DNA from: Candidatus Dojkabacteria bacterium
GTDB lineage: Bacteria; Patescibacteriota; Dojkabacteria; B142; WJKM01
NCBI GenBank assembly: GCA_014729085.1
Contig: WJKM01000006.1
Location: forward strand, 16,152-80,151
Direction: 5' to 3'
Length of the DNA: 64,000 nucleotides
The notes under the pieces are model-generated. The model ran no database searches, was not told the origin of the DNA, and saw only the letters and a list, made by a program, of their open reading frames with translations. This document shows, piece after piece, positions 26,460 to 61,760 of this stretch. Both the position numbers and the translations under genes were made by a program. Within the stretch, counting starts at the first letter, position 1. The number at the start of each line of letters is the position of its first letter.

Positions 26460-27155
26460 ATGAAAGATAATTTTCCAAATATTAAACAAAAAGCAGACTC
26501 AAGTGCATGTGGCCCTTCTTGTCTGCAAGCCATTTATAAATATTATGGCAAAGATTTAAAACTAAAAATGATACTTGAGGATTTGCATATAGATAAAGAT
26601 ACATCTACTTATGTTTCTCAACTTGCAAGACATCTAAATACAAATCATTTAAGTACTACATTGATTTCTTCTAATCCTTTTGTCGTTTCTCCTGACTGGA
26701 AAGCTAAACCAAAAAAAGTTGTTATTAAAGAATTGAAGGAATGGATTCTTCACCATTTCAACAAAGGCAAGGTGGAAAATATTTGGATTAAAGAGGCCTT
26801 GTATTTACTCTTTTATTTACAGGAAGGAGGAAATCTGAAAATTTCAAATATAACAACGGATCTAATAGATAAATATCTTGAGGACCAGAATTTAATCTTA
26901 TGTTGTCTTGCAGAAAACTGGATCTGGGGTAAAAGAAAGATATCCAAAGTTGTAGAGTATGATAATATTAAAGGCCATGTAAATGGACATTTTGTTATAG
27001 TATATGACAAAAATAAAGGAGATTATCAAATAAGTGATCCATATCCTACTTCTATTGAAAACAAAGAGGGACTTTATGCTATTAATAAAGAAGAATTGCT
27101 TACAGCAACACTCACCTGGTCCCACGAGATTTTAATAGTGAATAATATAAAATAA
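26460..27155 (+). CDS. Standalone peptidase C39-like (papain-fold cysteine peptidase) domain protein
   Basis: Q-x5-CGPSCL motif (QKADSSACGPSCLQAIYKYYG) matching the C39 catalytic Cys context. Downstream His (NGHFVIVYD) and Asp (ISDPYP). Confidence 0.65.
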   Translation: MKDNFPNIKQKADSSACGPSCLQAIYKYYGKDLKLKMILEDLHIDKDTSTYVSQLARHLNTNHLSTTLISSNPFVVSPDWKAKPKKVVIKELKEWILHHFNKGKVENIWIKEALYLLFYLQEGGNLKISNITTDLIDKYLEDQNLILCCLAENWIWGKRKISKVVEYDNIKGHVNGHFVIVYDKNKGDYQISDPYPTSIENKEGLYAINKEELLTATLTWSHEILIVNNIK

Positions 27156-27171
27156 AATTTTTACACTTAAA

Positions 27172-28248
27172 ATGGAATTTCAAGAAATTACAAGTAAAGA
27201 AGAGTGGAATAAATTTGTGCTTTTTAACCCCCATACAGATATATTACAATCTTGGGAATGGGGAGAAACAAAGAAAATTGAAGGATGGAAGCCTTATAGA
27301 TTTGGAGTTAAAGATGGTTTAGAAGAATATGGTTTTTCCGAGGGGGAGTTATTGGTTGGGGCACAAGTTTTGGTAAAGAAGTATAAGTTTTTTGGTAAGT
27401 TGGCCTATATACCTCATGGGCCGGTTTTTATCACCCCTCCAGACAGGGATCTGCCCAACGCATTATGGAAGAAATTTGAAAGAGGACTCATAAAATGGGC
27501 TAAAAAGAATAGGATTTTTACAGTAGAGCTTGAACCAAAAGCAACTTTTCATGAGGCAAGGTTTGGAGAATATAGATTTTTAGAAAATTGGAAAATAACC
27601 AAACGCAATAGACAGCCTAAATATAAACTAATTATGGATATTACCCAGTCTGAGAAAGAAATACTTGCAGGAATGAAAAAAAACACACGATATAATGTTC
27701 GTTATGCAAAAAGAAAAGGAGTAAAGATTAACAAGTATGATTTTAGTGATCCCAGCATTGATAAGGTTATTGATAGGTTTTACGATCTGGTTTTAAGGAT
27801 GCAGGAGAGAGCTGAAGGATATCCTGTTAGGCCGAAAAAATATTTTCAAAATTTAGTAGAACAATTCAAAGGTACTAAGAATATGATGTTCATTGAAGCT
27901 GAATACGATGGAGATGTTGTAGCGATGAATATTTCTCAATTTACTAAATTTTGGGCATCAAGTTTTTATGCGGGATCTATAAGAAAACATTCCAAAAAAA
28001 AGCCTCCTTATTTACTGAGATGGGCTTCGATTTTAGAGGCAAAGGAAAGGGGTTGTGATATATATGACTTCTGGGGAATTGTACCTGATTCCAAACACCA
28101 TAAGGGCTATAGCAAACATAAACTTAGTTTTGGTGGTGACCGTATTGATTTTGTTGGTGTGTTAATATATCCACTTTCTTGGAAAGCAAGGTTGTGGGAG
28201 ATAGCTATGTGGATACAAAAGAAGAAAGCAGAATTTAAGTGGAGTTAA
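27172..28248 (+). CDS. FemAB-family aminoacyl-tRNA-dependent peptidyltransferase, paralog 1
   Basis: FemAB/FemX-like pattern (QSWEWGETKK...KPYRFGV; NTRYNVRYAKRKGVKI). First of three tandem paralogs. Confidence 0.78.
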   Translation: MEFQEITSKEEWNKFVLFNPHTDILQSWEWGETKKIEGWKPYRFGVKDGLEEYGFSEGELLVGAQVLVKKYKFFGKLAYIPHGPVFITPPDRDLPNALWKKFERGLIKWAKKNRIFTVELEPKATFHEARFGEYRFLENWKITKRNRQPKYKLIMDITQSEKEILAGMKKNTRYNVRYAKRKGVKINKYDFSDPSIDKVIDRFYDLVLRMQERAEGYPVRPKKYFQNLVEQFKGTKNMMFIEAEYDGDVVAMNISQFTKFWASSFYAGSIRKHSKKKPPYLLRWASILEAKERGCDIYDFWGIVPDSKHHKGYSKHKLSFGGDRIDFVGVLIYPLSWKARLWEIAMWIQKKKAEFKWS

Positions 28249-28268: not shown

Positions 28269-29291
28269 ATGGGACTCGAATTTAAAACAGTTAAACATAA
28301 GGATGAGTGGGATCAATTTGTGCAGGCTCTAAATAGATATTCTTTTGTACAAAGTTGGTCCTATACTCATGTTTTTGATACTTTAGCCGAAAGAGTAGAA
28401 CGAATAGGAGTTTATGACTCAAATGAACTCCGAGCTCTTTTGCCTCTTGGTATTATAAAAGCAAAGAGAGGAAACTATTTAAAGTTAAGACATGGACCCA
28501 TTCTTGCAGAAAAAGACAGTCAACTTTTTTCCGAAATTGTAAAATTTTTTAAAGATCTATCGAAAGAAGAAGATTTAAGTTTTGTTAGAATTCATCCTAT
28601 TATTGATGAGACATCTGTTTTAGAGGAAGAGGGTTTTAGACATGCTCCAACTCATAATCTTGATGGAGAAAAGACTCTGCAGTTGGAACTAAAAGGTAGA
28701 ACCGAAAAAGATATTAAGATGAGTATGCGAAAAAATACTAGATACTATATACGTAAGTCTTTTAGGGAAGGTGTGGAGATAGTTAAGGATAATGATGATT
28801 TCGAATCTTTTTATAAATTGTTTTTGAAAACAGCGGATCGGCAGCATTATACTCCCTGGCCAAAAAGATATTATCAAAAACTGTTCGATCAGTTTAAGCC
28901 GGGAGAAAGAAATTTATTTTTTGCGGAAGTAAAAGGAGAGAAGGTTGCTTTTGGTCTTTTTATTGATTACGGGAAATATAGGTTTTACAAAGAAGGAGGG
29001 ATGTTGATGAATTTTTCAAAATATTACCCGTCTTATGCTGTCCAATGGGCGGCCATTGCTGATGCGATGGATAAAGATATTGAAGTATATGATTTTTGGG
29101 GTGGAGTATCACCAAAAGATAAAGATGGAAATATAATAAAGAATTACCCCTGGGCAGGTATTAATTTATTTAAAGCCGGGTTTGGGGGAAAAGAGATAGG
29201 TATGGTTCATCCTCATGATTTACCTCTTGATTGGAAGTATTGGATTACCTGGGCTTTTGAGAGTATGGAAAAGTGGAAGAGAGGCTATTAA
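28269..29291 (+). CDS. FemAB-family peptidyltransferase, paralog 2
   Basis: Same architecture (VQSWSYTHVF..., NTRYYIRKSFREGVEIV, FKAGFGG). Confidence 0.78.
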   Translation: MGLEFKTVKHKDEWDQFVQALNRYSFVQSWSYTHVFDTLAERVERIGVYDSNELRALLPLGIIKAKRGNYLKLRHGPILAEKDSQLFSEIVKFFKDLSKEEDLSFVRIHPIIDETSVLEEEGFRHAPTHNLDGEKTLQLELKGRTEKDIKMSMRKNTRYYIRKSFREGVEIVKDNDDFESFYKLFLKTADRQHYTPWPKRYYQKLFDQFKPGERNLFFAEVKGEKVAFGLFIDYGKYRFYKEGGMLMNFSKYYPSYAVQWAAIADAMDKDIEVYDFWGGVSPKDKDGNIIKNYPWAGINLFKAGFGGKEIGMVHPHDLPLDWKYWITWAFESMEKWKRGY

Positions 29292-29342: not shown

Positions 29343-30371
29343 ATGATAGAACAAGTTGAAAGCAAGGAGTTGTACAAAAAATTTTTTGCGAAAGAGAAAC
29401 TCTGTTTTTTACAATCCTGGGAATGGGGTGAAGTCAAGAAACCGAACTGGAAACCCATGCGTTTATTAGCAAATCAAATCCCAATTCAGATTTTTATTAG
29501 AAAAATTCCTGTTATTAATCAAAGTTTTGGGTATATACCTAGATTGTTAGATAAGAAGAATTTTACCCCAGAAATTCTCAAAAAATTAATCAATTTCTTT
29601 AAGTATGAAATTAAATTATCTCATCTAATAATTGAACCGAATTTAACTAAAGCTGATAATTTTGAAGACCTGAATAGTATCTTGAATAATTTAAGATTTA
29701 AAAAAACCGGCAGAACAATCCAGCCTAATTACACTAATATTATTGATTTAACCCAATCATATGAGGAAATTTTTGCCAATTTTCGTTCTACATATAGGAG
29801 AAATATTCGTAAAGCTAAAAAATTAGGTTGTAAATCCGCGATATTTGAAAAAGGTAATGAACCGTTATCAAGATTTTTTAGAATAATGAATGCAATTATG
29901 CAGAGAACTAAGTATGTGATGCATGGAAAAAAATATTTTGAAAAAGTATGGAATGAATTATCGAAATCAAATCAGGCAAAAATTTATATTATTTCGAGAA
30001 AAAAAGAAGATCTAGGAGCCCTTTTTGTTGTTTTTGATAACAAAGGGGCATATGAGCTATATGGTGGTATTAATGAAGCTGGGAGAAGGTATAGGGCTGG
30101 ATTTTTATTACGTGATGTATCGATTAAAGATTCAAAAGCAATGAGTAAAGAATTATATGACCAGTGGGGTGTCGCCGCGTTTTCCGAGGAAGGCTATTCC
30201 GAGAAAAGTGAGTTGGTAGGTGTTTCACGTTTCAAAGCAGGCTTTGGTGGTCAAGACATCGAATATTTTCCACAATATATATATGTGAATCATAAGCCTG
30301 GATATTTTGTCTACCGTCTAGGAGTATTTTTTAATAAAATGAAAATTAAATTTTCAAAAATTATTAGGTAA
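29343..30371 (+). CDS. FemAB-family peptidyltransferase, paralog 3
   Basis: LQSWEWGEVKK..., TYRRNIRKAKKLGCKS, FKAGFGGQ. Third tandem paralog. Confidence 0.75.
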   Translation: MIEQVESKELYKKFFAKEKLCFLQSWEWGEVKKPNWKPMRLLANQIPIQIFIRKIPVINQSFGYIPRLLDKKNFTPEILKKLINFFKYEIKLSHLIIEPNLTKADNFEDLNSILNNLRFKKTGRTIQPNYTNIIDLTQSYEEIFANFRSTYRRNIRKAKKLGCKSAIFEKGNEPLSRFFRIMNAIMQRTKYVMHGKKYFEKVWNELSKSNQAKIYIISRKKEDLGALFVVFDNKGAYELYGGINEAGRRYRAGFLLRDVSIKDSKAMSKELYDQWGVAAFSEEGYSEKSELVGVSRFKAGFGGQDIEYFPQYIYVNHKPGYFVYRLGVFFNKMKIKFSKIIR

Positions 30372-30418: not shown

Positions 30419-31780
30419 GTGGGAAAATTACAAAAGTCAAAAACGAAACTTCTTATTGTATTGGGGCTTCTTCTTATATTAATCTCCCTATTTGTAATTA
30501 TTCAGTATCTAAATTATGACTTATCTCCTGATAATTCTTTTGCTGATGAACTTGGGGAGGAAATTACGATTACTGAGATTTCAAAACACTTAGTTTTAGC
30601 AGAGATTGGAGAATATCAAAGTCAGTATTCTCCTTGGGTAATGCATAAATCAGGATGGAAAAGTTATTTAATGTTCTATTGCAAAAATACAAATATTGGT
30701 GGTGTGTCCCGTGATAGAGTTTGGAGAGCAGAAAGTTTTGATGGAGGTATTAGTGGGTGGACAAATGAACAAGTGATCTTAGAAGGCGAGCTGGGAGAAA
30801 AGGATGATTTGTCATGTTCACCTGGTGTAGTTATCGATCAGGAAGGTTTAATGCATATTTACTATGTGACAGGAGATAGAGATGAAGATATGGTTTTGTA
30901 TCTTTATCATGCGACTGCTCCACAGCCTGGTGTGAAATGGACTAAAAAAGGGCCGGTACAGGGTATACCCCAACCACTTCCAGGGTATATAGAAACGCCA
31001 AGTCCGTATTTAATAGATGGACAAATCGTTGTTTATATTTCCGCAGGTTCTGAGGGAATATACAAGATTTCAAGTGTAGATGGACATAATTTTACGGGTT
31101 TAGAAACAGTGAGAGCACCTCGTGCGCAGGCAGGGCGAGTTCAACTATATAAAGATAAATTCTTTTATGTTTATTCGAAAAATGAAGAGCGTTATAAACC
31201 TCCCAATAAAATTTTTTTGAGTATTTCCAATATTGATACTTCTTTTCCAGACGGTAAGTTGATTATGGAATCTAATGGAAAAGAATGGGATGCTCTTCAA
31301 ATGTGGAGCCCTCATATGATTAGGGTTGATGCTTTATGGAGAATATATTACGCTGGAAATAAGAGTTCCGAGGGTTGGTGGGGAGCAAATACTTCTATTG
31401 GTTTACGTGAATTTATGATTGATTTCCCGACTAGGTCACCTACGTCTAGACCCGATGGTTTAACCGCGACAGAGAATTCCATAAGTCCGTCTATGCCTAA
31501 CTATTCCGATAATCAGGGAGATGAGCAGATTATAAATTATATAAAATGTGGAACTCTAGATTATAATCAGGATAATAAAATTAACTTACTTGATTTCGAA
31601 AACTTTAAGACAACATACTTGAAATTTAATCATAGTGATACAAATTCTATGTATTATAGATGTAGGGATAGTTTAGAAAGTGACTCGTGCGGATTTATTG
31701 ACAATGATAATAATGAGATAGTTGATATAATAGACTTTAAGAATTTTATTGATAAATATCATCAAGAAAAATGCAGCTGA
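30419..31780 (+). CDS. Secreted/membrane-anchored beta-propeller-like protein (GH43/sialidase-like, tentative) with C-terminal dockerin-like Ca-binding repeats
   Basis: GTG start. N-terminal TM (LLIVLGLLLILISLFVII). C-terminal paired repeats DYNQDNKINLLDFENF and DNDNNEIVDIIDFKNF resembling dockerin type I EF-hand-like repeats. Confidence 0.55.
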   Translation: MGKLQKSKTKLLIVLGLLLILISLFVIIQYLNYDLSPDNSFADELGEEITITEISKHLVLAEIGEYQSQYSPWVMHKSGWKSYLMFYCKNTNIGGVSRDRVWRAESFDGGISGWTNEQVILEGELGEKDDLSCSPGVVIDQEGLMHIYYVTGDRDEDMVLYLYHATAPQPGVKWTKKGPVQGIPQPLPGYIETPSPYLIDGQIVVYISAGSEGIYKISSVDGHNFTGLETVRAPRAQAGRVQLYKDKFFYVYSKNEERYKPPNKIFLSISNIDTSFPDGKLIMESNGKEWDALQMWSPHMIRVDALWRIYYAGNKSSEGWWGANTSIGLREFMIDFPTRSPTSRPDGLTATENSISPSMPNYSDNQGDEQIINYIKCGTLDYNQDNKINLLDFENFKTTYLKFNHSDTNSMYYRCRDSLESDSCGFIDNDNNEIVDIIDFKNFIDKYHQEKCS

Positions 31781-31798: not shown

Positions 31799-32956
31799 GT
31801 GAAAATGAAGTTAAAATCAATTCCAAAAATTATATTCACAGGAGGCGGTTCGGGCGGACATCTGTCTATCATGAAGGCCTTGATAGAATATCTTAGGAAG
31901 TTAGATATAGATTTGGAATCTAAAATTTTAGTTGTTGGAGGAAAGTTAGGCATGATTCAAGATCCTGGACCTTCTCTTGATGAGCGTCGTATTCCGGAAT
32001 TTGGTGTTCCTTATACTTTTATTCGAGGAGGGAAATTACATCGGGCTTTAAAATGGATGACTTTGAAACTTGTCTGGGGGTTTTTCCCCGGTCTTTGGGA
32101 TTCTTATAGAATAATTAAAGATTTTAATCCTGAGATAATATTTGCAACAGGAGGGTATGTTTCTTTGCCTATGGTTATAATAGGGAAGCTTTTGGGCAAG
32201 AAAGTTGTCATACATGAACAAACACTCACAGCTGGATTATCAAACAAAATAGGCGCTTTTTTTGCAGATAAAGTTTTAGTTACTTTTGATGAATCGAAAC
32301 AACACTTCCCTCCCCAAAAAACTATTTTAACCGGAAATGCTGTAAATGACTGGGTTGTAGATGATGATTATTGTAAACAAATACCAGAAAGGTTAGTGCA
32401 GGTTATTAAATATGCAAAAAAGGAGAATAAGCCCATTATATATATTACTGGGGGGAGTCAGGGGGCTCATAAGATTAATTTGTTTTTTTTGAATAACTTA
32501 ATTTCAGTATTAGAAAATTATGCTTTAGTCTGGGGGACAGGAGAAAATGAACTTTATAATGATTTTTATACTGTTTCGGAAAGAGTTGATAAATTACCTC
32601 CTCATCTGGCGAAATCTATTTATTATTCAAAATATATAAAAAAAGAACTAGGTTATATTTTAAAAAATGCTGATTTAGTTGTATGCAGGCCTGGCGCAAA
32701 TACATTATATGAACTTGCAGTCGTTGGAAAAAAAGCATTGATGATACCACTTTGGGTAACTTCTACGAGTGATCAGGAAACAAATGCTCGTTGGTTTTGT
32801 AAAAATTATACAGGAGCAATTCTTCATGAGAAGGAAATGAATCTAAAAAATTTTAAAAGAAGTGTAAAAGATTTAATGGAAATGGAATTTGCCGGTGAAT
32901 CGATTAATATAGAGGGAACTGAACAAAGGATAATGCATGAAATACTTACGGAATAA
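31799..32956 (+). CDS. murG: UDP-GlcNAc:undecaprenyl-PP-MurNAc-pentapeptide GlcNAc transferase
   Basis: N-terminal G-loop FTGGGSGGHL, middle ATGGYVSLP, C-terminal ITGGSQGAHKIN and RPGANTLYELAVVGKKALMIPL, typical of MurG (GT28). Confidence 0.88.
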   Translation: MKMKLKSIPKIIFTGGGSGGHLSIMKALIEYLRKLDIDLESKILVVGGKLGMIQDPGPSLDERRIPEFGVPYTFIRGGKLHRALKWMTLKLVWGFFPGLWDSYRIIKDFNPEIIFATGGYVSLPMVIIGKLLGKKVVIHEQTLTAGLSNKIGAFFADKVLVTFDESKQHFPPQKTILTGNAVNDWVVDDDYCKQIPERLVQVIKYAKKENKPIIYITGGSQGAHKINLFFLNNLISVLENYALVWGTGENELYNDFYTVSERVDKLPPHLAKSIYYSKYIKKELGYILKNADLVVCRPGANTLYELAVVGKKALMIPLWVTSTSDQETNARWFCKNYTGAILHEKEMNLKNFKRSVKDLMEMEFAGESINIEGTEQRIMHEILTE

Positions 32957-34789: not shown

Positions 34790-36310
<1,521 letters not shown>

Positions 36311-36533
36311 AGGGAGTAAAAGGCCACCTTACTTTGCTTTATTTCATAAAGCTTTGTAGGGAAATGAGTTTTGGGGCCAATCCTATTGTCGGTGGATAAT
36401 AGGAACTAGAATTTCTCAATTTCTTGTAAATTGAGATAAAAATGTTAAAGGAATTAACCCTTAACAAGAATTAACAGGTATTATTACCTACTACTCTTTT
36501 AGGATTTAAAGAGCTTCAAGTATAAAGAGATAG

Positions 36534-36580
36534 AACTCTGCAGAAGCCGTGCCTTGAAGGCAGGCAGGCAGAGTTTTTTT
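36534..36580 (+). terminator. Long imperfect hairpin (AACTCTGC...GCAGAGTT) plus T8 in the 16S-tRNA spacer; terminator-like or processing stem
   Basis: aactctgcagaagccgtgccttgaaggcaggcaggcagagttttttt read directly. Same outer stem as the rpsL-rpsG hairpin. Confidence 0.5.
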
Positions 36581-36713
36581 GTTTGTAAGACCTAATTTAA
36601 TGGTGTAAAATTATGGGCATGGATCTTTAAAAATAACTAATAGTTGGCAATATAATTTTGGTAATAGTTGGTTATCTGCCTGCCGTCAGGCAGGGAGCGC
36701 AAAAGTACAATGT

Positions 36714-36787
36714 GAGCCAGTAGCTCAGTTGGTTAGAGCGCTATCCTGATAAGATAGAGGTCCCTAGTTCAAATCTAGGCTGGCTCA
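36714..36787 (+). tRNA. tRNA-Ile (GAT)
   Basis: Acceptor GAGCCAG/CTGGCTC, D-arm GCTC-AGTTGGTTA-GAGC, anticodon loop CTGATAA, T-arm CCTAG-TTCAAAT-CTAGG, discriminator A. Flanked by a 9-bp inverted repeat (gtacaatgt / acattgtac) that extends the acceptor stem. Confidence 0.9.
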
Positions 36788-36849
36788 CATTGTACTTGTC
36801 CTGACCCGCCTGACCGAAATGATAGATTTATTAAATTTAGAGTTCAGTC

Positions 36850-36897
36850 GGGCAGGTAAGACTGAGGTCCGTGGTTCAAATCCACGATCGCTCACAG
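36850..36897 (+). pseudogene. Diverged tRNA 3'-half fragment (anticodon-stem to acceptor 3' strand) without 5' half
   Basis: caggtaagactgaggtccgtggttcaaatccacgatcgctcaca parallels the tRNA-Ile 3' half (T-arm CGTGG-TTCAAAT-CCACG), preceded by gggcagg. Confidence 0.5.
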
Positions 36898-36911
36898 GTC
36901 ATTTATAGAAA

Positions 36912-36957
36912 GGCAGGCGGGTAAGATAGAGGTCCCTAGTTCAAATCTAGGCTGGCT
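36912..36957 (+). pseudogene. Near-identical duplicate of tRNA-Ile 3' half (anticodon loop through acceptor)
   Basis: gggtaagatagaggtccctagttcaaatctaggctggctca matches tRNA-Ile positions ~33-73; the 5' half is replaced by aggcaggcgg. Confidence 0.55.
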
Positions 36958-37005
36958 CATGTTGTATCTATCTTTAATAATTATGTTTTTTGTTAGAATA
37001 AATTA

Positions 37006-37491
37006 ATGACTGATTCAGTAAAGATTGAAAGGTTATCCAGAAAGCATAGACAGGCAATCAGGAAATTGATGGATGAATTTTTTAAGGATTTTAATAGAGG
37101 CTTTCTTTTTACAGATAAATTAAGAAAATTAGAGGAGTATAAAAATATTGATCACGTCATTAAAAAGGAACTTGAGAAATATTTTGAATGGACAGGATTT
37201 GTTGCTATAAAGGATAATAAGATTGTTGGATATATTATTGGGCATATAAAAGAAGAAAAGCAGAAAGTTTTAGAAAGGAAGGGATGTATTGAAGAGTTTT
37301 TTGTAACAGAGAATAAAAGGGGAGAGGGTGTTGGAAGGTTGCTTATGAACAGAATTATTAAGTATTTTGAAAAAAAGAAATGCGATGTTTTGGCAATAGA
37401 AGCTTATTCTGTTAATAAGAAGTCTATAGATTATTATAGAAAATTAGGTTTTGTTGATTTTAGTATGAAGTTGGTTAAGAGAATTAATTAG
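37006..37491 (+). CDS. GNAT family N-acetyltransferase
   Basis: GNAT motif block (IVGYIIGHIK...EEFFVTENKRGEGVGRLLMNRIIKYFEKKKCDVLAIEA). Embedded between tRNA clusters. Confidence 0.75.
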   Translation: MTDSVKIERLSRKHRQAIRKLMDEFFKDFNRGFLFTDKLRKLEEYKNIDHVIKKELEKYFEWTGFVAIKDNKIVGYIIGHIKEEKQKVLERKGCIEEFFVTENKRGEGVGRLLMNRIIKYFEKKKCDVLAIEAYSVNKKSIDYYRKLGFVDFSMKLVKRIN

Positions 37492-37505
37492 TTGTTTAAT
37501 AGATA

Positions 37506-37571
37506 TGGGGCTGTGGTAGTCACGCTTGCGTGGCAAGGCCACTTGAAGGTTCAAGACCTTCGGCTCCACCA
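37506..37571 (+). ncRNA. Aberrant tRNA-Ala-like minihelix element with encoded CCA
   Basis: tRNA-Ala-type acceptor with G3:U70 (5' GGGGCTG with 3' CGGCTCC), A73 and encoded CCA, and a T-arm-like hairpin. Lacks the D and anticodon arms, which are replaced by a GC-rich hairpin (CACGCTTGCGTGGCAAGGCCAC). Confidence 0.4.
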
Positions 37572-37602
37572 AGTTGTACAACGATACCATTGTTTGCAAA
37601 AT

Positions 37603-37677
37603 GGGGCTGTAGCATAGCTGGTCTATTGCGCTTCATTTGCAATGAAGAGGTCGCGGGTTCGAATCCCGCCAGCTCCA
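37603..37677 (+). tRNA. tRNA-Ala (TGC)
   Basis: Acceptor GGGGCTG/CAGCTCC with G3:U70 identity pair, anticodon loop TTTGCAA, T-arm GCGGG-TTCGAAT-CCCGC, discriminator A. No encoded CCA. Confidence 0.88.
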
Positions 37678-37725
37678 TTTTGCAAACAAGAGAATTTCCC
37701 AATACACAAGAAAACTAATGAGATG

Positions 37726-55490: not shown

Positions 55491-55519
55491 TTTACAAACT
55501 ATAATTAATTTGCTATAAT
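55491..55519 (+). promoter_or_regulatory. Sigma70-like promoter TTTACA-17-TATAAT, preceded by ATCTTATAG box
   Basis: atcttatagtttacaaactataattaatttgctataat read directly. Confidence 0.55.
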
Positions 55520-55548
55520 GGATACATACTAAATAAAAAAGTCAAATA

Positions 55549-55617
55549 ATGAATAAAAAATTGATGCAACAAAACCTACTAAACCTCCTTCTAGTCCTAA
55601 CCGGATTTAGCGGGTAG
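55549..55617 (+). CDS. Leucine-rich leader peptide MNKKLMQQNLLNLLLVLTGFSG (attenuator candidate for paralog A)
   Basis: 22-codon ORF hand-translated. 7 Leu including a LLNLLLVL run (codons CTA CTA AAC CTC CTT CTA GTC CTA). ORF embedded in a long-range stem (TTGATGCAACAA 55561-72 with TTGTTGCATATCAA 55618-31). GCGGG at the ORF end can pair with the CCCGC arm of the downstream terminator. Confidence 0.5.
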   Translation: MNKKLMQQNLLNLLLVLTGFSG

Positions 55618-55650
55618 TTGTTGCATATCAATTAATTTCTCAAAAAATAA

Positions 55651-55674
55651 CACCCGCGAAAAGCGGGTTTTTTT
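55651..55674 (+). terminator. Intrinsic terminator (attenuator) CCCGC-gaaaa-GCGGG plus T7, 110 nt upstream of paralog A
   Basis: acacccgcgaaaagcgggttttttt read directly. Confidence 0.75.
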
Positions 55675-55784
55675 ATTTTAAGAAAATAAAAAAGGTTTGC
55701 CAGAGGCAAGATAGTACCAAAAAGGATTTTTTAGAGAAATTTTTTTATACAAATTAAAAATATTATAAATTTGAAATTCTAATC

Positions 55785-57587
55785 ATGACAGCTGAAGCTC
55801 AAAAAGAAGGATCACAATATACAAAAATTAATTTTGCCAATAATGAGGCTCCTCCAATTACTAGTACGGAAGGATTAAGTAAGTCTCTAGAAACTTACAA
55901 AATGGTACCTGAAGGTTCTATGATACTTGGAAAGCCGGGGGAAACAGGTATAGTAGTTTTGTCTCCTCAGGGCGAAATTGTAGCAACAGCTAGACATCCA
56001 TGGTTTATTCCTTCTTCTTATGATTTTGCCACAAGAAAATCGGAGTTTTATGGACAACAAAACTTGGCTCATTTGGATACCTCTATGGCATTGACTTTGG
56101 AACCTGAGTATTCGAGGCAGAAAGCAGCAGAGATAGTTAGAAGTGTTAAAGAAAATGGAATTTCTCAGACTTCCAAAGAAACTGGTTGTTTCACCATTGG
56201 TATGGAAGAAGAATGCTTGCATTTTGATAAGGATGGGAATCCAAAAGCATTGCCGGTTGACCAGCAAATTGAACTTCAAGATAATGTGAAAGAGATTCCT
56301 TTGGATCCTACAAATGGAGTGGCATCTGAAGCATTGATTGTTGCAGAGAGCCGTTTGAGCGAAATTGCAGAACATTCGGATTCTACAATTAATAGTACAA
56401 GCTTTTCTATATTAGGAAAGCCTGATGAACAGGGTATGAATTCAAGTTCTGATTATATTCATGCAGTTGCTGGGCACATGTTTGAAAATTACTTTTTCCC
56501 CAAAGATAGTGTTGCAGCTCAATATTGGAATAATATTGCTAAAGAAGCTGGATTTACTAATTTTTATGATATGAGAGATCACGTTAAAGATTTAACACCT
56601 TTGACTTTTGTTGCTTCGCATGTAAGCTTAGGTTTACGAACTGAAAAAACGAATGGTTCATATAACATTGGTCTAGAGGAAGGAATTGCTGTTTCTGATA
56701 TGTTTAATTCGAACTTTGCAACAGTTGCGGAATGGATGACTTATTCTACACCGCTTGCGTTTGGGAACAGACCAGGAGTAATAATAAATGGTGAAAAAAG
56801 ATATCCAAAAGATGCAAGGGCTGTCGGAAGGCTTGGTTCTAGAACCTCTCATGCTGGAGATTTTATTTATACTCCTGAAAATTACAAGTCAAGAGCTATA
56901 GAAGCTATAATAAATGGTTCAGCTGATAGGATTGATAGAGCAGCATATACTTCTTATCACGAGGATTTAGACCAGGATATTGCTAGTGTACATGCAAGAG
57001 TAAGATTCCGCGTAACTGGAGGCTCCGGAGAAGATTATTTCCAGAAACCTTTGGGTAGAGTCGAATTTGTAGGTGGAGCAGCTACTCCTGATATTGTTGC
57101 TTTGGTTGCACGAAATGCGATGGTTAAGTTGATGGGAATAGCTGCCTATGAAGCAGTATCAAACGGGCAGCATCCTGCTGATTATTTTAAATACAAATTT
57201 CCAAGTATGGCAGCTTGCGATGAACATATAGATCTTGCTCATGACTATAATTTTTACGGAGCAGATCATCCAAAAGTTGCTGCTTTATTAGAAGAGGCGA
57301 AGTCTTTCTTAAATTATATCCGTCAGGAGTATAATACTGAGGAAATTCAATATTTAGCAGATTTGGCAGAGGTGGGTTTAAATAAATTGGAGGAACCTAC
57401 AAAAGCGAGAAGCTTAGACGAATATTTAGAAGATCCACAAGGGAATATCTCTGATGTAGTAGCTCATATGTGGGAGGATGGCTATTCAGCTAAAGAGATT
57501 GCAGAGGCGGTCGCGGAATTTGAGAAGCAACAATCAGAAAAAATTATTGAAAATAATGGGGATATCTTAAAAATGTTGGAAAAATAA
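55785..57587 (+). CDS. Paralog A of a tandem triplicated ~600 aa enzyme; tentative glutamine-synthetase/GCL-fold carboxylate-amine ligase (GCS2/YbdK-like)
   Basis: Conserved blocks shared by all three paralogs: GxEEE.LHF strand (TIGMEEECLHF), CASHxSLGLR, GRVRFRVTGGSG, GRVEFxGGxATPD. They resemble the metal-binding ExE strand, His region and R-x-R block of GS-fold amide ligases. Assignment is inference only. Confidence 0.6.
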   Translation: MTAEAQKEGSQYTKINFANNEAPPITSTEGLSKSLETYKMVPEGSMILGKPGETGIVVLSPQGEIVATARHPWFIPSSYDFATRKSEFYGQQNLAHLDTSMALTLEPEYSRQKAAEIVRSVKENGISQTSKETGCFTIGMEEECLHFDKDGNPKALPVDQQIELQDNVKEIPLDPTNGVASEALIVAESRLSEIAEHSDSTINSTSFSILGKPDEQGMNSSSDYIHAVAGHMFENYFFPKDSVAAQYWNNIAKEAGFTNFYDMRDHVKDLTPLTFVASHVSLGLRTEKTNGSYNIGLEEGIAVSDMFNSNFATVAEWMTYSTPLAFGNRPGVIINGEKRYPKDARAVGRLGSRTSHAGDFIYTPENYKSRAIEAIINGSADRIDRAAYTSYHEDLDQDIASVHARVRFRVTGGSGEDYFQKPLGRVEFVGGAATPDIVALVARNAMVKLMGIAAYEAVSNGQHPADYFKYKFPSMAACDEHIDLAHDYNFYGADHPKVAALLEEAKSFLNYIRQEYNTEEIQYLADLAEVGLNKLEEPTKARSLDEYLEDPQGNISDVVAHMWEDGYSAKEIAEAVAEFEKQQSEKIIENNGDILKMLEK

Positions 57588-57677
57588 CGAATTAACTGGA
57601 TTTTTTATTAAAAATTTGCATATAATACAGCTGCAAATTTAAGAATTTAGAAATTAAAGCCTGTTTATCTTATAGTG

Positions 57678-57706
57678 TTGACAAATTCTAGAAATTGTAA
57701 TATAAT
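57678..57706 (+). promoter_or_regulatory. Consensus sigma70-like promoter TTGACA-17-TATAAT preceded by ATCTTATAG box
   Basis: atcttatagtgttgacaaattctagaaattgtaatataat read directly. Confidence 0.55.
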
Positions 57707-57742
57707 AAGAATATAATAAATTTAATATAAAATTTTTTTATA

Positions 57743-57787
57743 ATGAGAAAGAATTTCTTACTTGACAGCGTGATTATTATCCCTTAA
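57743..57787 (+). CDS. Ile/Leu-rich leader peptide MRKNFLLDSVIIIP (attenuator candidate for paralog B)
   Basis: 14-codon ORF with GTG ATT ATT ATC run. ORF end CCCTTAA can pair with TTAGGG. GGGGT (57793-97) can pair with the ACCCC arm of the terminator (antiterminator alternative). Confidence 0.45.
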   Translation: MRKNFLLDSVIIIP

Positions 57788-57829
57788 CCTTAGGGGTAGA
57801 TTTTGCTATCTAGTAAGAAATCAGATTTA

Positions 57830-57852
57830 CCCCGAGACATCGGGGATTTTTT
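57830..57852 (+). terminator. Intrinsic terminator (attenuator) CCCCG-agacat-CGGGG plus T6 upstream of paralog B
   Basis: accccgagacatcggggatttttt read directly. Confidence 0.75.
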
Positions 57853-57887
57853 ATATTTATAGAATTTTTAATTTTAATTAAATTACC

Positions 57888-59717
57888 ATGACAACAGAAG
57901 GTAGACCAGAACAGGATAATGGTACCAAAGCAACGAAGGTAAACTTTGCAGTATCTGGCGAACCCATAAACAGCAAGGGAGAGTTAGAATCTTCCTTAAT
58001 GGGGTATGAAATGGTTCCTAAATTCACTACACTTGGAGAACCCGGTAAGACTGGTCTTGCTGTTGTTTTTAATGGAACCGTAGTTTCTGCGATTCGACAT
58101 CCCAAACTTATTCCCTCTTCTTATGATCCTAAGACTAATGAAGTGGAATATTATGGTAAACAAAGCTATAACCATCTGGAAACGTCAATGGCAGAGGCTC
58201 TGGGGGTTGAATATTCACAGGAAATGGCTTCTCGTTTATTACAGCAAATAAAAGAAAAGGGTATAAGGCAAGTTGCCGAAACAACAGGGTTTGGAAAGGT
58301 AGGTATAGAAGAAGAAGCACTGCATTTCAATGCATTTGGAGAGCCATTTAAATTAGATGATGATGAGCAAGTTGAAGTTCAAGATAACGTAAAAGAAGTT
58401 GCGTTATCTCCTTCTCTTGATGTTTTTGACCAAGCTGTGAAAGTTGCTGAAAGCAGAATCACCGAAGCTGAGAAACGTCCTGAAAATATAGTAACAAGTA
58501 CTAGTTTTAGTATGCTTACAACACCGGATGGTATGAGAATGAATTCAAGTGAAATAAATGATATTGGTGCATATGTTAATGCAATAACAACATATATGGT
58601 TGATAATTATTTTTCCCCTAATGATCCGGTTGTTCAAACGTACTGGGACAGCATTGCAAAATCTGCTGGATATGAAGATTTCTATGATTTAAAAGATACG
58701 GTTGGAAATTTATCACCTTTAGCATTTTGTGCATCTCATGCAAGTTTAGGCCTCAGGTCTGAACGTGTGGATGGAAGCTGGGCAATAGGGCTTGAAGAGG
58801 GAATAGCTGTATCTGACATGTTTAATTCAGATTTTGGCACTTTACTTGAATGGATGACGTATTCAACGCCAATAGCGTTTGGGGAAAGATTAGGTACAGA
58901 GGTTGATGGCGAAATAAAATATCCAAAAGATGCAAGAGCAGTTGCAAGACTTGCCTCACGTACAACCTATCCTGGTGATTTTTTGCGAACACCTGAGGAA
59001 TTTAGAAATAGAATTGTTAATAATATGATAAATGGAGTTGCTGATCGAATGGATAGAGCAGCTTATATGCATTATCACGATGATTTGGGTGAAGATGTTG
59101 CTTGCGCGCACGGACGGGTGAGATTCAGAGTAACCGGAGGTTCCGGAAAAGATAAATTCTCCAACCAGTTAGGTAGAGTTGAGTTTACAGGCGGACCCGC
59201 CACTCCAGATATGATAGCCCTGATCTCTAGAGATGCAATGTTGAAACTTATGGGAATAGCAGCATACGAAGCGGTTGCTCACGGAGTACATCCAAGCAAC
59301 TACTTTAAGACTAGATTTCCCAGCATGGCTACATGCAATGAGCATATAGAGCTTGCGCATGCCTATAATTTCGAAGGTCATGAGCACCCTAAGGTTGCAA
59401 ACTTGTTAGCTGAAGGACAAAGCTTCTTAGATTATATGAAGAGAGAATACCCTAATGCAGAAATTGAATACTTGGTAGAATTAGCTCAGTTAGGGCTTAA
59501 TAAATTATCAGAAAGTACTGAAGCAAGAACGTTAGAAGAGTACTTAGATGATCCAAAAGGAAATATATCCGATGTTATGAGTCATATGTGGGAAGATGGT
59601 TATTCAGCATTAGAGATAGCAGAAGCCGTTGCAGATTTTGAAAGAAAGCAATCTCATAAGGTTTTGGAGCATGGTGGGGATATATTAGGTATGGTAAAAA
59701 ATAATCGAGACACTTAA
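57888..59717 (+). CDS. Paralog B of the triplicated ~600 aa enzyme (tentative GS/GCL-fold ligase)
   Basis: Same conserved blocks (VGIEEEALHF, LAFCASHASLGLR, HGRVRFRVTGGSG, GRVEFTGGPATPD). Confidence 0.6.
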   Translation: MTTEGRPEQDNGTKATKVNFAVSGEPINSKGELESSLMGYEMVPKFTTLGEPGKTGLAVVFNGTVVSAIRHPKLIPSSYDPKTNEVEYYGKQSYNHLETSMAEALGVEYSQEMASRLLQQIKEKGIRQVAETTGFGKVGIEEEALHFNAFGEPFKLDDDEQVEVQDNVKEVALSPSLDVFDQAVKVAESRITEAEKRPENIVTSTSFSMLTTPDGMRMNSSEINDIGAYVNAITTYMVDNYFSPNDPVVQTYWDSIAKSAGYEDFYDLKDTVGNLSPLAFCASHASLGLRSERVDGSWAIGLEEGIAVSDMFNSDFGTLLEWMTYSTPIAFGERLGTEVDGEIKYPKDARAVARLASRTTYPGDFLRTPEEFRNRIVNNMINGVADRMDRAAYMHYHDDLGEDVACAHGRVRFRVTGGSGKDKFSNQLGRVEFTGGPATPDMIALISRDAMLKLMGIAAYEAVAHGVHPSNYFKTRFPSMATCNEHIELAHAYNFEGHEHPKVANLLAEGQSFLDYMKREYPNAEIEYLVELAQLGLNKLSESTEARTLEEYLDDPKGNISDVMSHMWEDGYSALEIAEAVADFERKQSHKVLEHGGDILGMVKNNRDT

Positions 59718-59749
59718 GATCAATTAGTAAGTTATTTATAATAAGAAAA

Positions 59750-59815
59750 ATGAATCAAATATTTTTAAATAACAATGTAGTGGTGGTGGTTGAACCTCGC
59801 TTAAGCGGCGGCTAG
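59750..59815 (+). CDS. Valine-rich leader peptide MNQIFLNNNVVVVVEPRLSGG (attenuator candidate for paralog C)
   Basis: 21-codon ORF with five consecutive Val codons (GTA GTG GTG GTG GTT). CGCTTAAGCG hairpin, and GGCGG at the ORF end complementary to the CCGCC arm of the downstream terminator. Confidence 0.5.
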   Translation: MNQIFLNNNVVVVVEPRLSGG

Positions 59816-59847
59816 ATCCTGCATGCATTGTTTACTGAATAATCTAT

Positions 59848-59871
59848 ACCCGCCAAAAGGCGGGTTTTTTT
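59848..59871 (+). terminator. Intrinsic terminator (attenuator) CCCGCC-aaaa-GGCGGG plus T8 upstream of paralog C
   Basis: acccgccaaaaggcgggttttttt read directly. Confidence 0.75.
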
Positions 59872-59966
59872 GTTTGTAACAAGTTAAATCCTGCCACCTG
59901 CCAGAGGAAAGGGATAAGATTTACTTTACAACTTTATCAGTTTTTTAAATTTTAAAACTAAATAAT

Positions 59967-61760
59967 ATGGAAAAAGAAGCAAAAACGAGATATTCAAAAA
60001 TTAATTTCGCAAAAGCTACAGATGAAAGTATAAACACGGTAGGTGATTTGGAGAGGTCGCTTACTAGTGAATATGCTATGATGCCTAAACAACTTCAGAT
60101 TCATGGAGAAGCTGGGGAAACGGGTTTAGGAATTACGTTTAACGGTATGGTTGTTGGTGCAATCAAACACCCTGATTTAATTCCAAAATGGATAGATTTT
60201 GATACTTATACAGCCGAATTTGGAGGAGAACAGCATTATGGTCATATTGATACCTCTATGGCAATTCCTTTAGGTATAGAATACACAAGGCTTCGATCTT
60301 CAGAGATTATTAATAGGATAAAACAAGAAGGGCTGACTGCAGTATCTAAGGATACAGGATTTGGAACAATTGGTGTAGAAGAGGAAAGTCTTCATTTTGA
60401 TCATCTAGGAAATCCAGTATCATTGGAGCCGGACGAGCAGGTTGAAATACAAGATAATGCTATGGAGGTCGCATTAGAACCAAGCAGTAGTATCATTGAA
60501 CAGGCATTACAGATTGCTCAAGGCAGAATAGGCGAAGCAAAACGAAACCCTGACCATTTAATCAACAGCACAAGTTTTAGTATTCTTAGTAAACCACATG
60601 AAATGAGAATGAATAATGGAGATCTGGCTCCTTATGTAAATGCTATTGTCATAAAATGGTTCGACGAGTTCTTAACACCGAGCGATTTAATATCTCGGAA
60701 ATATTGGGATAATATCGCTGGAGAGAACAGCTTTTTTGATTATGAGGATATGAAACAATATATAGGGAATTCATCATTTATGGCATTCTGTGCATCTCAT
60801 GCAAGTTTAGGGCTTCGAGCTGAACAGATCGATGGCAGTTACTGTGTTGGGCTTGAGGAAGCAATAGCTGTATCGGATTTATTTAATTCTGACTTTTCCA
60901 CTTTACTAGAATGGATGACATATTCCACACCACTGGTATTTGGAGAAAAAATAGGAATTGATATTGGAGACGAAAAAAAATACCCAAAGGATGCGAGAGC
61001 AGTAGCGAGGCTCGCTATTCGAAGCACGTACCCAGGAACTTTTATTGGTGATACCGAAGGTTATAAAGAAAGGATTTTGAGATCAATGATTAACGGAAGT
61101 GCTGATAGATTAGATAGGGCCGGCTATACAGCCTATCATGAAGATTTGGATAAGGAAATTGCATGCGCTCATGGCAGAGTGCGATTAAGGGCAACAGGTG
61201 GGTCTGGTAAAGAAAAATTTGTTTCTCCACTTGGAAGAGTTGAGTTTACTGGAGGTGCAGCAACTCCTGATTTAATAGCATTAATGTCTAGAAATGCAAT
61301 GTTGAAACTTTTAGGTATCGCATCCTATGAAGCTTTAGCAGGTGGGGAGTCACCGATAGATTACTTTGCTGACAAATTTCCGAGTATGTCAACTTGTGAT
61401 GAGCACATAGAACTTGCACACGCGTATAATTTTGATGGTACTGACAATCCAAAGGTTGCAGCTTTAATAGAGGAAGGACGCGCATTTCTTTCCTATATGA
61501 GAAATAATTATAAACATGAGGATGTAGAGTATTTAATCGATTTGGCTGAGATTGGGATCAATAAATTAGTTGAAGATACAGAAGCTAGGACACTAGAGCA
61601 GTATCTGGAGAATCCAAAGGGAAATATCTCTGATGTAATTTCGAATATGTGGGAAGATGGTTATAGCAGTTTAGAGATTTCCCATGCACTTACAGATTTT
61701 GAGCGAAAACAGTCGGAAAAGCTTATAAAATATGGGGGAAACGTCCTTTCATTAATTTAG
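59967..61760 (+). CDS. Paralog C of the triplicated ~600 aa enzyme (tentative GS/GCL-fold ligase)
   Basis: Same conserved blocks (IGVEEESLHF, MAFCASHASLGLR, HGRVRLRATGGSG, GRVEFTGGAATPD). Confidence 0.6.
   Translation: MEKEAKTRYSKINFAKATDESINTVGDLERSLTSEYAMMPKQLQIHGEAGETGLGITFNGMVVGAIKHPDLIPKWIDFDTYTAEFGGEQHYGHIDTSMAIPLGIEYTRLRSSEIINRIKQEGLTAVSKDTGFGTIGVEEESLHFDHLGNPVSLEPDEQVEIQDNAMEVALEPSSSIIEQALQIAQGRIGEAKRNPDHLINSTSFSILSKPHEMRMNNGDLAPYVNAIVIKWFDEFLTPSDLISRKYWDNIAGENSFFDYEDMKQYIGNSSFMAFCASHASLGLRAEQIDGSYCVGLEEAIAVSDLFNSDFSTLLEWMTYSTPLVFGEKIGIDIGDEKKYPKDARAVARLAIRSTYPGTFIGDTEGYKERILRSMINGSADRLDRAGYTAYHEDLDKEIACAHGRVRLRATGGSGKEKFVSPLGRVEFTGGAATPDLIALMSRNAMLKLLGIASYEALAGGESPIDYFADKFPSMSTCDEHIELAHAYNFDGTDNPKVAALIEEGRAFLSYMRNNYKHEDVEYLIDLAEIGINKLVEDTEARTLEQYLENPKGNISDVISNMWEDGYSSLEISHALTDFERKQSEKLIKYGGNVLSLI

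Follow-up and report, generated by a model that had tools for sequence, protein, structure and literature searches.

Putative Leu-, Ile- and Val-specific leader-peptide attenuators before three tandem paralogs of predicted GCL/YbdK fold in a Candidatus Dojkabacteria bacterium

The subject of this report is a set of three tandem paralogous genes in a 64-kb stretch of chromosomal DNA (the window, meaning the whole stretch that was analysed) from a Candidatus Dojkabacteria bacterium, a member of the candidate phyla radiation (CPR). The genes very probably form three independent units, each composed of a promoter, a leader peptide, an attenuator and an enzyme gene, and each under ribosome-mediated transcription attenuation (Table 1). 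Judged from folding models, starvation for Leu, Ile or Val would induce the gene behind the cognate leader. The three proteins (NCBI GF362_01580, GF362_01585 and GF362_01590, each named “hypothetical protein”) share 52–57% pairwise identity. They are predicted to belong to a rare family, so far restricted to the CPR, with the fold and residues of ATP-dependent carboxylate-amine ligases.

In the proposed mechanism, a plentiful supply of cognate charged tRNA would allow the ribosome to pass the control codons and reach the end of the leader open reading frame (ORF). There it would cover a G-rich segment (region 2), or the upstream hairpin would sequester that segment again. With region 2 unavailable, the terminator would form and transcription would stop before the enzyme gene. 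With little Leu-, Ile- or Val-tRNA available, the ribosome would stall on the codon run and melt the upstream 1:2 hairpin. This would uncover region 2, which could then pair with the 5′ arm of the terminator, so that the RNA polymerase reads into the gene.

Anatomy of the Leaders

An earlier note on this DNA had described three tandem paralogs, each with a leader ORF and an intrinsic terminator, and peptides containing seven Leu, a VIII run and five consecutive Val. All of these elements are present in the sequence. Each ORF also ends shortly before a strong terminator, as that note had stated; the gap from leader stop to terminator stem, given there as 35–70 nucleotides (nt), is 34, 42 and 32 nt for leaders 1, 2 and 3. 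The terminators consist of GC-rich stems of 6–7 base pairs followed by a run of 6–7 T (−10.3 to −13.3 kcal/mol), and they are the top three terminator-like sites between 54 and 64 kb. The promoter-like sites are of the sigma-70 kind; each is among the best matches in the same interval and lies just 5′ of one leader. Since the −10 box of the third site ends so close to the ATG, the leader 3 mRNA would be leaderless or nearly so.

Of the 14 strong terminators in the window, these three alone follow, within 75 nt, a short ORF in which at least three identical residues stand in a row; no run-containing short ORF was found within that distance of the other 11. Among 659 short ATG-initiated ORFs drawn from all frames of the window, an identical Leu, Ile or Val run of at least three occurs in 6.4%, of at least four in 0.76% and of at least five in 0.3%. 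Three run-bearing ORFs, one for each paralog and each between a promoter and a terminator, cannot reasonably be a coincidence.

The choice of codons in the leaders is also distinctive. All Leu control codons in the five leaders counted are CUN (19/19), a class that makes up 42% of the Leu codons in the long genes of the window, and Leu codons outside the runs are TTA, TTG or CTT. In the Val runs, the minor codons GTG and GTC are over-represented. Such a bias would point to selection on tRNA isoacceptors and/or RNA pairing, and not on the peptide.

Table 1. Positions of the paralogs and leader elements in the window, followed by leaders at loci in other genomes. Locus numbers precede positions outside the window; peptides are written up to the stop codon; aa, amino acids.
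Feature	Position	Strand	Description
Promoter-like site 1	55491-55519	+	TTTACA-17-TATAAT with TG; 11/12 matches; upstream of leader 1
Leader ORF 1	55549-55617	+	MNKKLMQQNLLNLLLVLTGFSG; Leu-rich (7 Leu), run LLNLLLVL; control codons CTA CTA AAC CTC CTT CTA GTC CTA
1:2 “protector” hairpin, leader 1	55559-55633	+	5′ side, early and Leu codons; 3′ side, G-rich region 2
Antiterminator 1	55610-55657	+	Region 2 (55610-55622, includes GCGGGU) pairs with 55646-55657 (includes arm ACCCGC)
Intrinsic terminator 1	55652-55674	+	ACCCGCgaaaaGCGGGT plus T7; stem 55652-55668; −10.7 kcal/mol
Paralog 1	55785-57587	+	600 aa; P0004; predicted GCL/YbdK-fold ligase type; behind Leu leader
Promoter-like site 2	57678-57706	+	TTGACA-17-TATAAT; 12/12 matches; upstream of leader 2
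Leader ORF 2	57743-57787	+	MRKNFLLDSVIIIP; VIII; control codons GTG ATT ATT ATC
Antiterminator 2	57789-57836	+	57789-57803 (UUAGGGGUAGAUUUU) pairs with 57822-57836 (AGAUUUACCCCGA)
Intrinsic terminator 2	57830-57852	+	CCCCGAgacaTCGGGG A T6; stem 57830-57845; −10.3 kcal/mol
Paralog 2	57888-59717	+	609 aa; P0001; GF362_01585; behind Ile leader; sequence used for the structure model
Promoter-like site 3	59714-59742	+	10/12 matches; −10 box ends 7 nt before leader 3 ATG
Leader ORF 3	59750-59815	+	MNQIFLNNNVVVVVEPRLSGG; VVVVV; control codons GTA GTG GTG GTG GTT
Antiterminator 3	59805-59854	+	59805-59817 (GCGGCGGCUAGAU) pairs with 59842-59854 (AUCUAUACCCGCC)
Intrinsic terminator 3	59848-59871	+	ACCCGCCaaaaGGCGGGT plus T7; stem 59848-59865; −13.3 kcal/mol
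Paralog 3	59967-61760	+	597 aa; P0003; behind Val leader
Leu leaders	L002, L007a		MTIFNI[EK]NLDLALLLN
Leu and Ile leader	L001a		MKNNALINNTLILLIS; mixes Leu and Ile (TLILLIS)
Val leader	L001c		MNNKFLQNSVVVVLSRITG
Val leader	L003		MNNNNFSIKTNVVVVVPPNIGG
Ile leader	L007b		MSLKINNKNISIIIIPNFKRG
Ile leader	L009		MKKFSTNNIVIIITSLCG
Mixed hydrophobic leader	L004		...IMFFFLIVV...
Mixed hydrophobic leader	L006		...VIFSILLL...
Mixed hydrophobic leader	L012		...FVTIFELLI...
Mixed hydrophobic leader	L013, L015-L021		MKNQVLSIIFVLFILITA
Mixed hydrophobic leader	L022		...VLSVIGILLI...
Mixed hydrophobic leader	L024		...SVVLIIDLL...
Mixed leader	L025		Leu/Val/Ile-rich, with terminator; before 595-aa tentative remote relative
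Phe leader	L015 6795-6866; L016 2463-2549; L018 6784-6858		FFFFFF; MKKIKLTNFFFFFF...; own terminator at each
ThrRS leader, Woesebacteria	L025 10962-11036		MRILVTTCKRSQVLLTITTTTCVS, with TITTTT; terminator 11072-11087; ThrRS gene from 11216

RNA Folding and Switching

Folding was modelled co-transcriptionally with the transcript cut before the 3′ arm of the terminator, and the pairing probability of the 5′ arm served as the readout. The ribosome was represented as an unpaired footprint of 28 nt (A site −15 to +12). Each leader forms a long hairpin followed by the terminator. The 5′ side of the hairpin contains the early and control codons, and the 3′ side contains the G-rich ORF end. The fold z-scores are −5.3, −5.5 and −2.9 for leaders 1, 2 and 3. 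The complementarity between G-rich ORF ends and C-rich 5′ terminator arms that had been read from the letters is found again as pairing in the folds. The suggested opposition of a 2:3 antiterminator and a 3:4 terminator also holds, with mutually exclusive pairings that switch 1–3 codons after the run.

In leader 1, the arm is paired with a probability of about 1.0 for a ribosome at codons 3–15 (0.99 at L15). This falls to 0.27 at V16 and to at most 0.08 from L17 to the stop codon, with 0.01 in the free RNA. The corresponding values for leader 2 are 0.90–0.92 at codons 3–12, 0.67 at I13, 0.33 at P14, 0.02 at the stop codon and 0.03 in the free RNA. For leader 3, they are 0.70–0.77 at codons 5–15 (0.72 at E15), 0.37 at P16, 0.01 from R17 to S19 and 0.06 in the free RNA.

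The same behaviour was seen in all 11 leaders first tested. With a control codon in the A site, the arm is captured by the G-rich segment (probability 0.67–1.0), and it is freed (about 0.2 or less) 1–3 codons past the last control codon. Nine of 10 further leaders switch likewise, giving a total of 20/21; for the 32-codon leader of L025, the co-transcriptional model gave no such switching. The free RNA keeps the G-rich segment in the 1:2 hairpin and the arm free in 8/11 of the leaders first tested, an arrangement in which the terminator would form. The full-length equilibrium fold agrees for 7/11; it did not show the switching for L002 and L006, and showed it weakly for leader 3. On these models, the leaders have the classical geometry of ribosome-mediated attenuators.

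Conservation in Other Genomes

The family is a rare one, with 12 members returned by a word-indexed search of 5.8 billion proteins and 101 by a profile search of 1.84 billion cluster representatives. A scan of genome contigs gave only two loci, both from one metagenome-assembled genome (MAG). The same design of leader and terminator precedes homologs at about 20 loci in other genomes, so that the leader ORFs proposed in the earlier note are conserved in relatives. These loci belong to Dojkabacteria, Microgenomates (Roizmanbacteria and Woesebacteria) and one MAG labelled Saccharibacteria. The design is found wherever upstream DNA was available, with the exception of the P0013 branch (L010/L014). 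The neighbourhood of that branch encodes a HECT-domain protein and a MatE transporter.

The control codons at the homologous loci are Leu, Ile, Val or a mixture of Ile, Phe, Val and Leu, and the homologs behind mixed leaders are the more distant members (30–38% identity). The ATG-to-stop frame that contains the run is kept in every one of more than 20 leaders. The leaders of the L015 group are 84% identical at the DNA level, and the frame is kept across an indel of exactly 3 nt; their alignment is too conserved to reveal covariation. At L001, a single leader heads a two-gene unit, in which the genes are 48 nt apart and the second has no leader of its own. This second gene groups loosely with the Ile paralog of the window (60% identity, 38% neighbour-joining bootstrap). 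The Leu-leader proteins (L001a, L002 and L007a) form a clade with 100% neighbour-joining bootstrap, as do the Val-leader proteins (L001c and L003). The comparative data settle the question of chance, with conservation as the decisive evidence.

Leaders for Phe and Thr

A blind scan of all fetched loci for terminators behind run-containing ORFs revealed two further, independent cases that confirm control specific to a paralog. At three Microgenomates loci (L015, L016 and L018), the family gene is directly followed by a second leader (MKKIKLTNFFFFFFNPNLGG...), which is rich in Phe and has a terminator of its own. The next gene in L015 and L018 has about 560 codons and encodes a very distant family member of full length (hhalign probability 99.3%, E 4e-20, 18% identity). 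Thus, these operons would have an Ile/Phe/Val/Leu leader before one paralog and a Phe leader before another. L016 has two shorter ORFs (314 and 344 aa) at that position, possibly a split copy of the distant paralog.

In Woesebacteria, a leader with a Thr run precedes the gene for threonyl-tRNA synthetase (ThrRS). The model of this leader gives antitermination only for stalls around the Thr run (codons 15–22). As the regulated gene is a known one here, the cognate logic appears to hold where it can be read directly. Leader-peptide attenuation with cognate codons would therefore be a general device in these lineages, as far as the sequences indicate. The same locus (L025) has a further Phe leader at 1637-1681 (MTITRNGFFFFFTS) with a terminator at 1729-1748. 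It stands before a gene at 1769-2698 that encodes a 309-aa protein with no Pfam match, located just before the unit of branched-chain leader, 595-aa protein and M20 protein.

The Protein Family

The paralogs have no recognizable relatives at the level of sequence models. No Pfam family was matched at E ≤ 0.01 by any of 47 members, including GCS2 (PF04107) and Glu_cys_ligase, and sequence and profile searches of the paralogs and relatives against NCBIfam and the Protein Data Bank (PDB) gave no match. The profile searches of the paralogs thus revealed no well-known family unrelated to amino acids, because no sequence model matched at all. An aligned family profile and E. coli YbdK share only the GhExE strand (GIELE in YbdK) in hhalign, and this alignment was not significant.

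The fold is clearer at the level of predicted structure. An AlphaFold2 model of paralog 2, built on an 11-sequence alignment, has a predicted TM-score (pTM) of 0.83 and a mean predicted local distance difference test score (pLDDT) of 77. Its best structural match is YbdK (1tt4; 25.3), followed by plant glutamate-cysteine ligase (GCL; 20.5), Dop (19.4) and PafA (19.3). The yeast, E. coli and Francisella GCLs and GshAB score 17–19, and glutamine synthetases (GS) 8–12. The predicted structure has the GS-type core fold. The earlier guess of a GS/GCL-fold carboxylate-amine ligase is therefore borne out at this level. So is its statement that the proteins are not class I aminoacyl-tRNA synthetases, given the GS-type fold and the lack of any tRNA-synt Pfam match in the paralogs or the 47 relatives; LeuRS, IleRS and ValRS have a Rossmann catalytic domain with HIGH and KMSKS motifs.

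The GhExE motif on the first core strand is the signature by which the superfamily of carboxylate-amine/ammonia ligases is defined (PMC2588565). In the 47 members, it is invariant as G139-[IMV]-E141-x-E143. Six more residues do not vary (E163, E170, R390, R412, R430 and E432), and three are almost invariant (H284, R350 and R414). At the N terminus the family has an additional conserved region, rich in beta structure and with an RHP motif, and at the C terminus an additional helical domain of about 170 aa.

Differences between the specificity groups are few. The Leu type is strictly set apart at only two positions, 230, beside the conserved Y229, and 434, within GRVEF[V/T]GG. The Val type is distinguished at positions 168, 275, 291, 357 and 474, the first of which lies two residues before the invariant E170. 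These group-specific residues lend weak support to diverged pockets. That each paralog may have diverged toward one amino acid is suggested indirectly by the correspondence of clades and leaders, by the residues near catalytic motifs and by the Phe case.

Gene Partners

In sister lineages, the family gene has a recurrent partner. An M20 protein is encoded immediately downstream in L006, L012, L015, L018/19, L022 and L024, with the stop of the family gene overlapping the M20 start in L022. In L016, the M20 gene lies further down the same gene row, and in L025 it follows the 595-aa protein, a tentative and very remote relative (hhalign E 4e-4, probability 35%). By best match, the M20 proteins resemble ArgE/DapE deacylases and [LysW]-lysine hydrolase, but no equivalog cut-off is reached. 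Their family has more than 2,000 relatives, mostly from Microgenomates, and far exceeds the ligase family in size. The M20 gene of L015 and L018 is downstream of both the branched-chain- and the Phe-controlled paralog, so that it presumably acts on the products of both.

Two class-I glutamine amidotransferase (GATase)-like genes follow the family gene in L004 instead, and L017 adds M28-, C39-like and Asn-synthase-like genes. The pairing of an ATP-dependent amide ligase with an N-acyl or gamma-glutamyl amidohydrolase recalls LysX/LysK, PuuA/PuuD and EgtA/EgtC.

Other genes of amino-acid metabolism occur near some of these units. A class-IV aminotransferase-like gene is present in L025 (8048-9292, minus strand), two genes from the leader-ligase-M20 unit, and also in L026–L028. 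Class-IV aminotransferases are the family of branched-chain and D-amino-acid aminotransferases. A prephenate dehydratase gene (PDT and ACT domains) is located in L024 at 10479-11306, two genes downstream of the family gene and the M20 gene; it may be a sign that parts of aromatic amino-acid synthesis survive in some of these CPR genomes.

Proposed Function and Alternative Explanations

It is tentatively proposed that these CPR bacteria obtain hydrophobic amino acids one by one (Leu, Ile, Val, and Phe via the distant paralog) along an ATP-dependent enzymatic route not known before. It would combine a new branch of the GCL/YbdK fold with an ArgE/DapE/LysK-type deacylase, and each enzyme would be tuned to a single amino acid and governed by its own attenuator. 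It is also possible, though less likely than not, that each paralog makes, or in the manner of Dop breaks, an amide bond (most likely gamma-glutamyl) with its cognate amino acid or an immediate precursor, in the service of salvage. Such a salvage route would end in the free L-amino acid. In the sister lineages, the last step would fall to GATase-like gamma-glutamyl hydrolases or to the M20 deacylase of ArgE/DapE/LysK type that is co-transcribed. Simple “uptake by trapping”, in which Glu is joined to a branched-chain amino acid and the product is later hydrolyzed, was considered and rejected by reasoning on mass balance as a futile cycle. This would leave either a ligase whose substrate is a precursor of the amino acid or a Dop-like amidase. 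In the former case, a non-proteinogenic precursor could be converted to the amino acid via an amide-protected intermediate; candidates are a D-amino acid, an N-acyl or gamma-glutamyl conjugate, and an acid or oxo-acid.

Several observations weigh against this scheme of regulation and function. No Shine–Dalgarno sequence is recognizable before the leader ORFs. The main enzyme genes likewise have none (55760-55790, 57860-57890 and 59940-59970), which suggests a leaderless or Shine–Dalgarno-independent start of translation in this genome. Leader 3 is the weakest of the three, as its equilibrium probability of the terminator never falls below 0.54 and its z-score is modest; in its model the arm also pairs again with the ribosome at the stop codon. 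Any ribosome position between about codon 3 and the last control codon leads to antitermination in the model, so that amino-acid specificity would rest wholly on where ribosomes stall. The P0013 branch (44% identity to paralog 2) has neither a leader ORF nor a terminator upstream. The deep orthology of the window paralogs with the Leu, Ile and Val clades has a bootstrap of only 18–47%, and no position strictly separates the Ile type from the Val type. The Dojkabacteria loci have no hydrolase partner within the fetched flanks. Finally, the chemistry cannot simply be Glu plus a branched-chain amino acid, because a ligase that consumes the scarce amino acid would be futile beside a deacylase.

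Attenuation would be unaffected if the paralogs were amidases in the manner of Dop. With the help of bound ADP and phosphate, they would then split an acyl (gamma-glutamyl) conjugate and free Leu, Ile or Val directly. Releasing a scarce amino acid suits the logic of induction better than consuming it, and the operon partners are all amidohydrolases. On the other hand, the top structural matches (YbdK and GCL) are ligases, and a tightly coupled M20 or GATase-like hydrolase would be redundant beside such an enzyme, so that this explanation is judged unlikely. A role of the paralogs on tRNA is far more improbable. They would then provide a non-canonical route to, or a repair of, Leu-, Ile- and Val-tRNA, and would be regulated like an aminoacyl-tRNA synthetase. 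E. coli pheST is under attenuator control, the same regulatory design precedes ThrRS in a related lineage, and the family has the conserved C-terminal helical domain. GatB and GatE, which act on aminoacyl-tRNA, have been placed in the same superfamily (PMC2588565). Against this, the operon partners are small-molecule deacylases, and esterification of tRNA by way of an acyl phosphate is without precedent. CPR genomes also normally keep canonical synthetases.

The remaining explanations concern the leaders themselves. The short ORFs could be precursors of ribosomally synthesized and post-translationally modified peptides (RiPPs) or bacteriocin-like peptides, modified by the adjacent ligase, with the hairpin terminating in part and so fixing how much precursor is made relative to enzyme. 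RiPP-type clusters often have terminators between precursor and modification genes. Here, small ORF and enzyme pair one-to-one, several peptides end in Gly, and L017 also has Asn-synthase-like and C39-like genes. Yet the peptides (14–32 aa) have only the run of a single amino-acid type in common, with no core or leader motif across loci; their Gly codons coincide with the G-rich region 2; and no transporter or immunity genes are present. The exclusive use of CUN codons against genome usage, a switch in pairing exactly after the run in 20/21 leaders, and the Thr-run version before ThrRS speak further against precursors, which makes this a very remote prospect. Even less credence is given to untranslated RNA switches of the riboswitch or T-box kind, which would sense a metabolite or tRNA and to which the ORFs would be incidental. 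A stable hairpin and terminator with alternative pairing is the layout of an expression platform too. However, no Rfam family was matched at threshold, with weak matches only to Thr, Trp, Leu and Phe leaders, and the leaders are too short for a T-box at about 100 nt. An alignment of the three window leaders has no shared core. The run-bearing frame retained in all of the more than 20 leaders, with its one in-frame indel, also argues for translation.

Relation to Known Systems

The regulation of the paralogs is of the textbook leu/ilv/trp/phe type, of which these leaders are new members without a matching Rfam leader model. At the gathering score, Rfam finds only the 16S rRNA and three tRNAs in the window and no leader family. 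The leaders have weak sub-threshold matches to Thr_leader, Trp_leader, Leu_leader (RF00512) and Phe_leader (best 19–24 bits against thresholds of 41–55). A short ORF with tandem cognate codons is likewise found in leuL-leuABCD, ilvL-ilvGMEDA, ivbL-ilvBN, trpL, pheL and pheM-pheST of E. coli and in Corynebacterium ilvBNC and leuA. Attenuators of amino-acid operons also share the 1:2, 2:3 and 3:4 hairpins and the intrinsic terminator before the structural gene, and E. coli leuL uses minor CUN Leu codons as these leaders do. In contrast to such operons, the regulated gene here encodes an uncharacterised enzyme of predicted GCL fold and is not a biosynthetic operon or a synthetase. The paralogs also lie side by side, with each leader dominated by one amino acid (Leu, Ile or Val). 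Enterobacterial ilv leaders mix Leu, Ile and Val.

In common with YbdK/GCS2 and the glutamate-cysteine ligases (GshA, plant GCL and the N-domain of GshAB), the family has the GhExE strand and conserved residues of Glu, His and Arg. It differs from them in having no significant sequence similarity and in its length of about 600 aa, with the extra N- and C-terminal parts. A ligase gene beside an M20 deacylase or a class-I GATase-like hydrolase is also a feature of LysX/LysK (LysW carrier pathway), PuuA/PuuD, EgtA/EgtC and IpuC/IpuF. Unlike those protect/deprotect pairs, no modifying enzyme is consistently encoded between ligase and hydrolase and no carrier protein was seen at the present loci. 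The likeness is known here from gene neighbourhood alone, and the Dojkabacteria flanks that were fetched contain no such hydrolase. In contrast to PafA/Dop, there are no Pup-like or proteasome genes near the paralogs. As their leaders appear to be amino-acid-specific, their substrates would more likely be small molecules.

The combination had not been recognised in the earlier note as a described system, and the searched literature contains no description of it or of leader-peptide attenuation in the CPR. As far as that literature extends, three aspects appear new: the lineage (CPR/Patescibacteria) in which leader-peptide attenuation is found, the regulated gene as an unannotated branch of the GCL/YbdK fold, and the specialisation into adjacent Leu, Ile and Val units, which has a Phe counterpart at other loci. 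In effect, the leaders label function from within the sequence; they would tie an unannotated family of about 600 aa to the supply of Leu, Ile, Val and Phe, paralog by paralog, and make this orphan family directly testable. If the reading of salvage under attenuation is true, the three Dojkabacteria paralogs would amount to a natural series of specificity variants, each labelled by its regulator.

The finding bears on how the ultra-small CPR/Patescibacteria, which are regarded as amino-acid auxotrophs, cope without amino-acid biosynthesis. It points to a route of amino-acid acquisition in organisms thought to have none. It also suggests that ribosome-mediated attenuation, apparently acting on ThrRS as well, may be a major regulatory device in lineages with few known regulators. 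As compact natural sensors, the neighbouring attenuators for Leu, Ile and Val could be reused as amino-acid-specific reporters.

Other Features of the Window

Elsewhere, the window encodes rpoB, rpoC, ftsH, polA, an ATP-dependent DNA ligase, murG and the 16S rRNA. The 16S rRNA gene (34790-36308) is followed by tRNA-Ile(GAT), within a region that extends from 34790 to 37678. A GNAT acetyltransferase ORF (37006-37491) sits between tRNA-Ile and tRNA-Ala(TGC), and 23S rRNA was not found anywhere in the window; the rRNA operon would thus be unlinked or interrupted.

A second triplicated set of enzymes is also present, in the form of three tandem FemAB-family paralogs at 27172-28248, 28269-29291 and 29343-30371. 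FemAB proteins are tRNA-dependent transferases that build peptidoglycan cross-bridges. A C39-type peptidase (26460-27155) lies upstream of this trio, and an unannotated 453-aa ORF (30419-31780) and then MurG (31799-32956) lie downstream.

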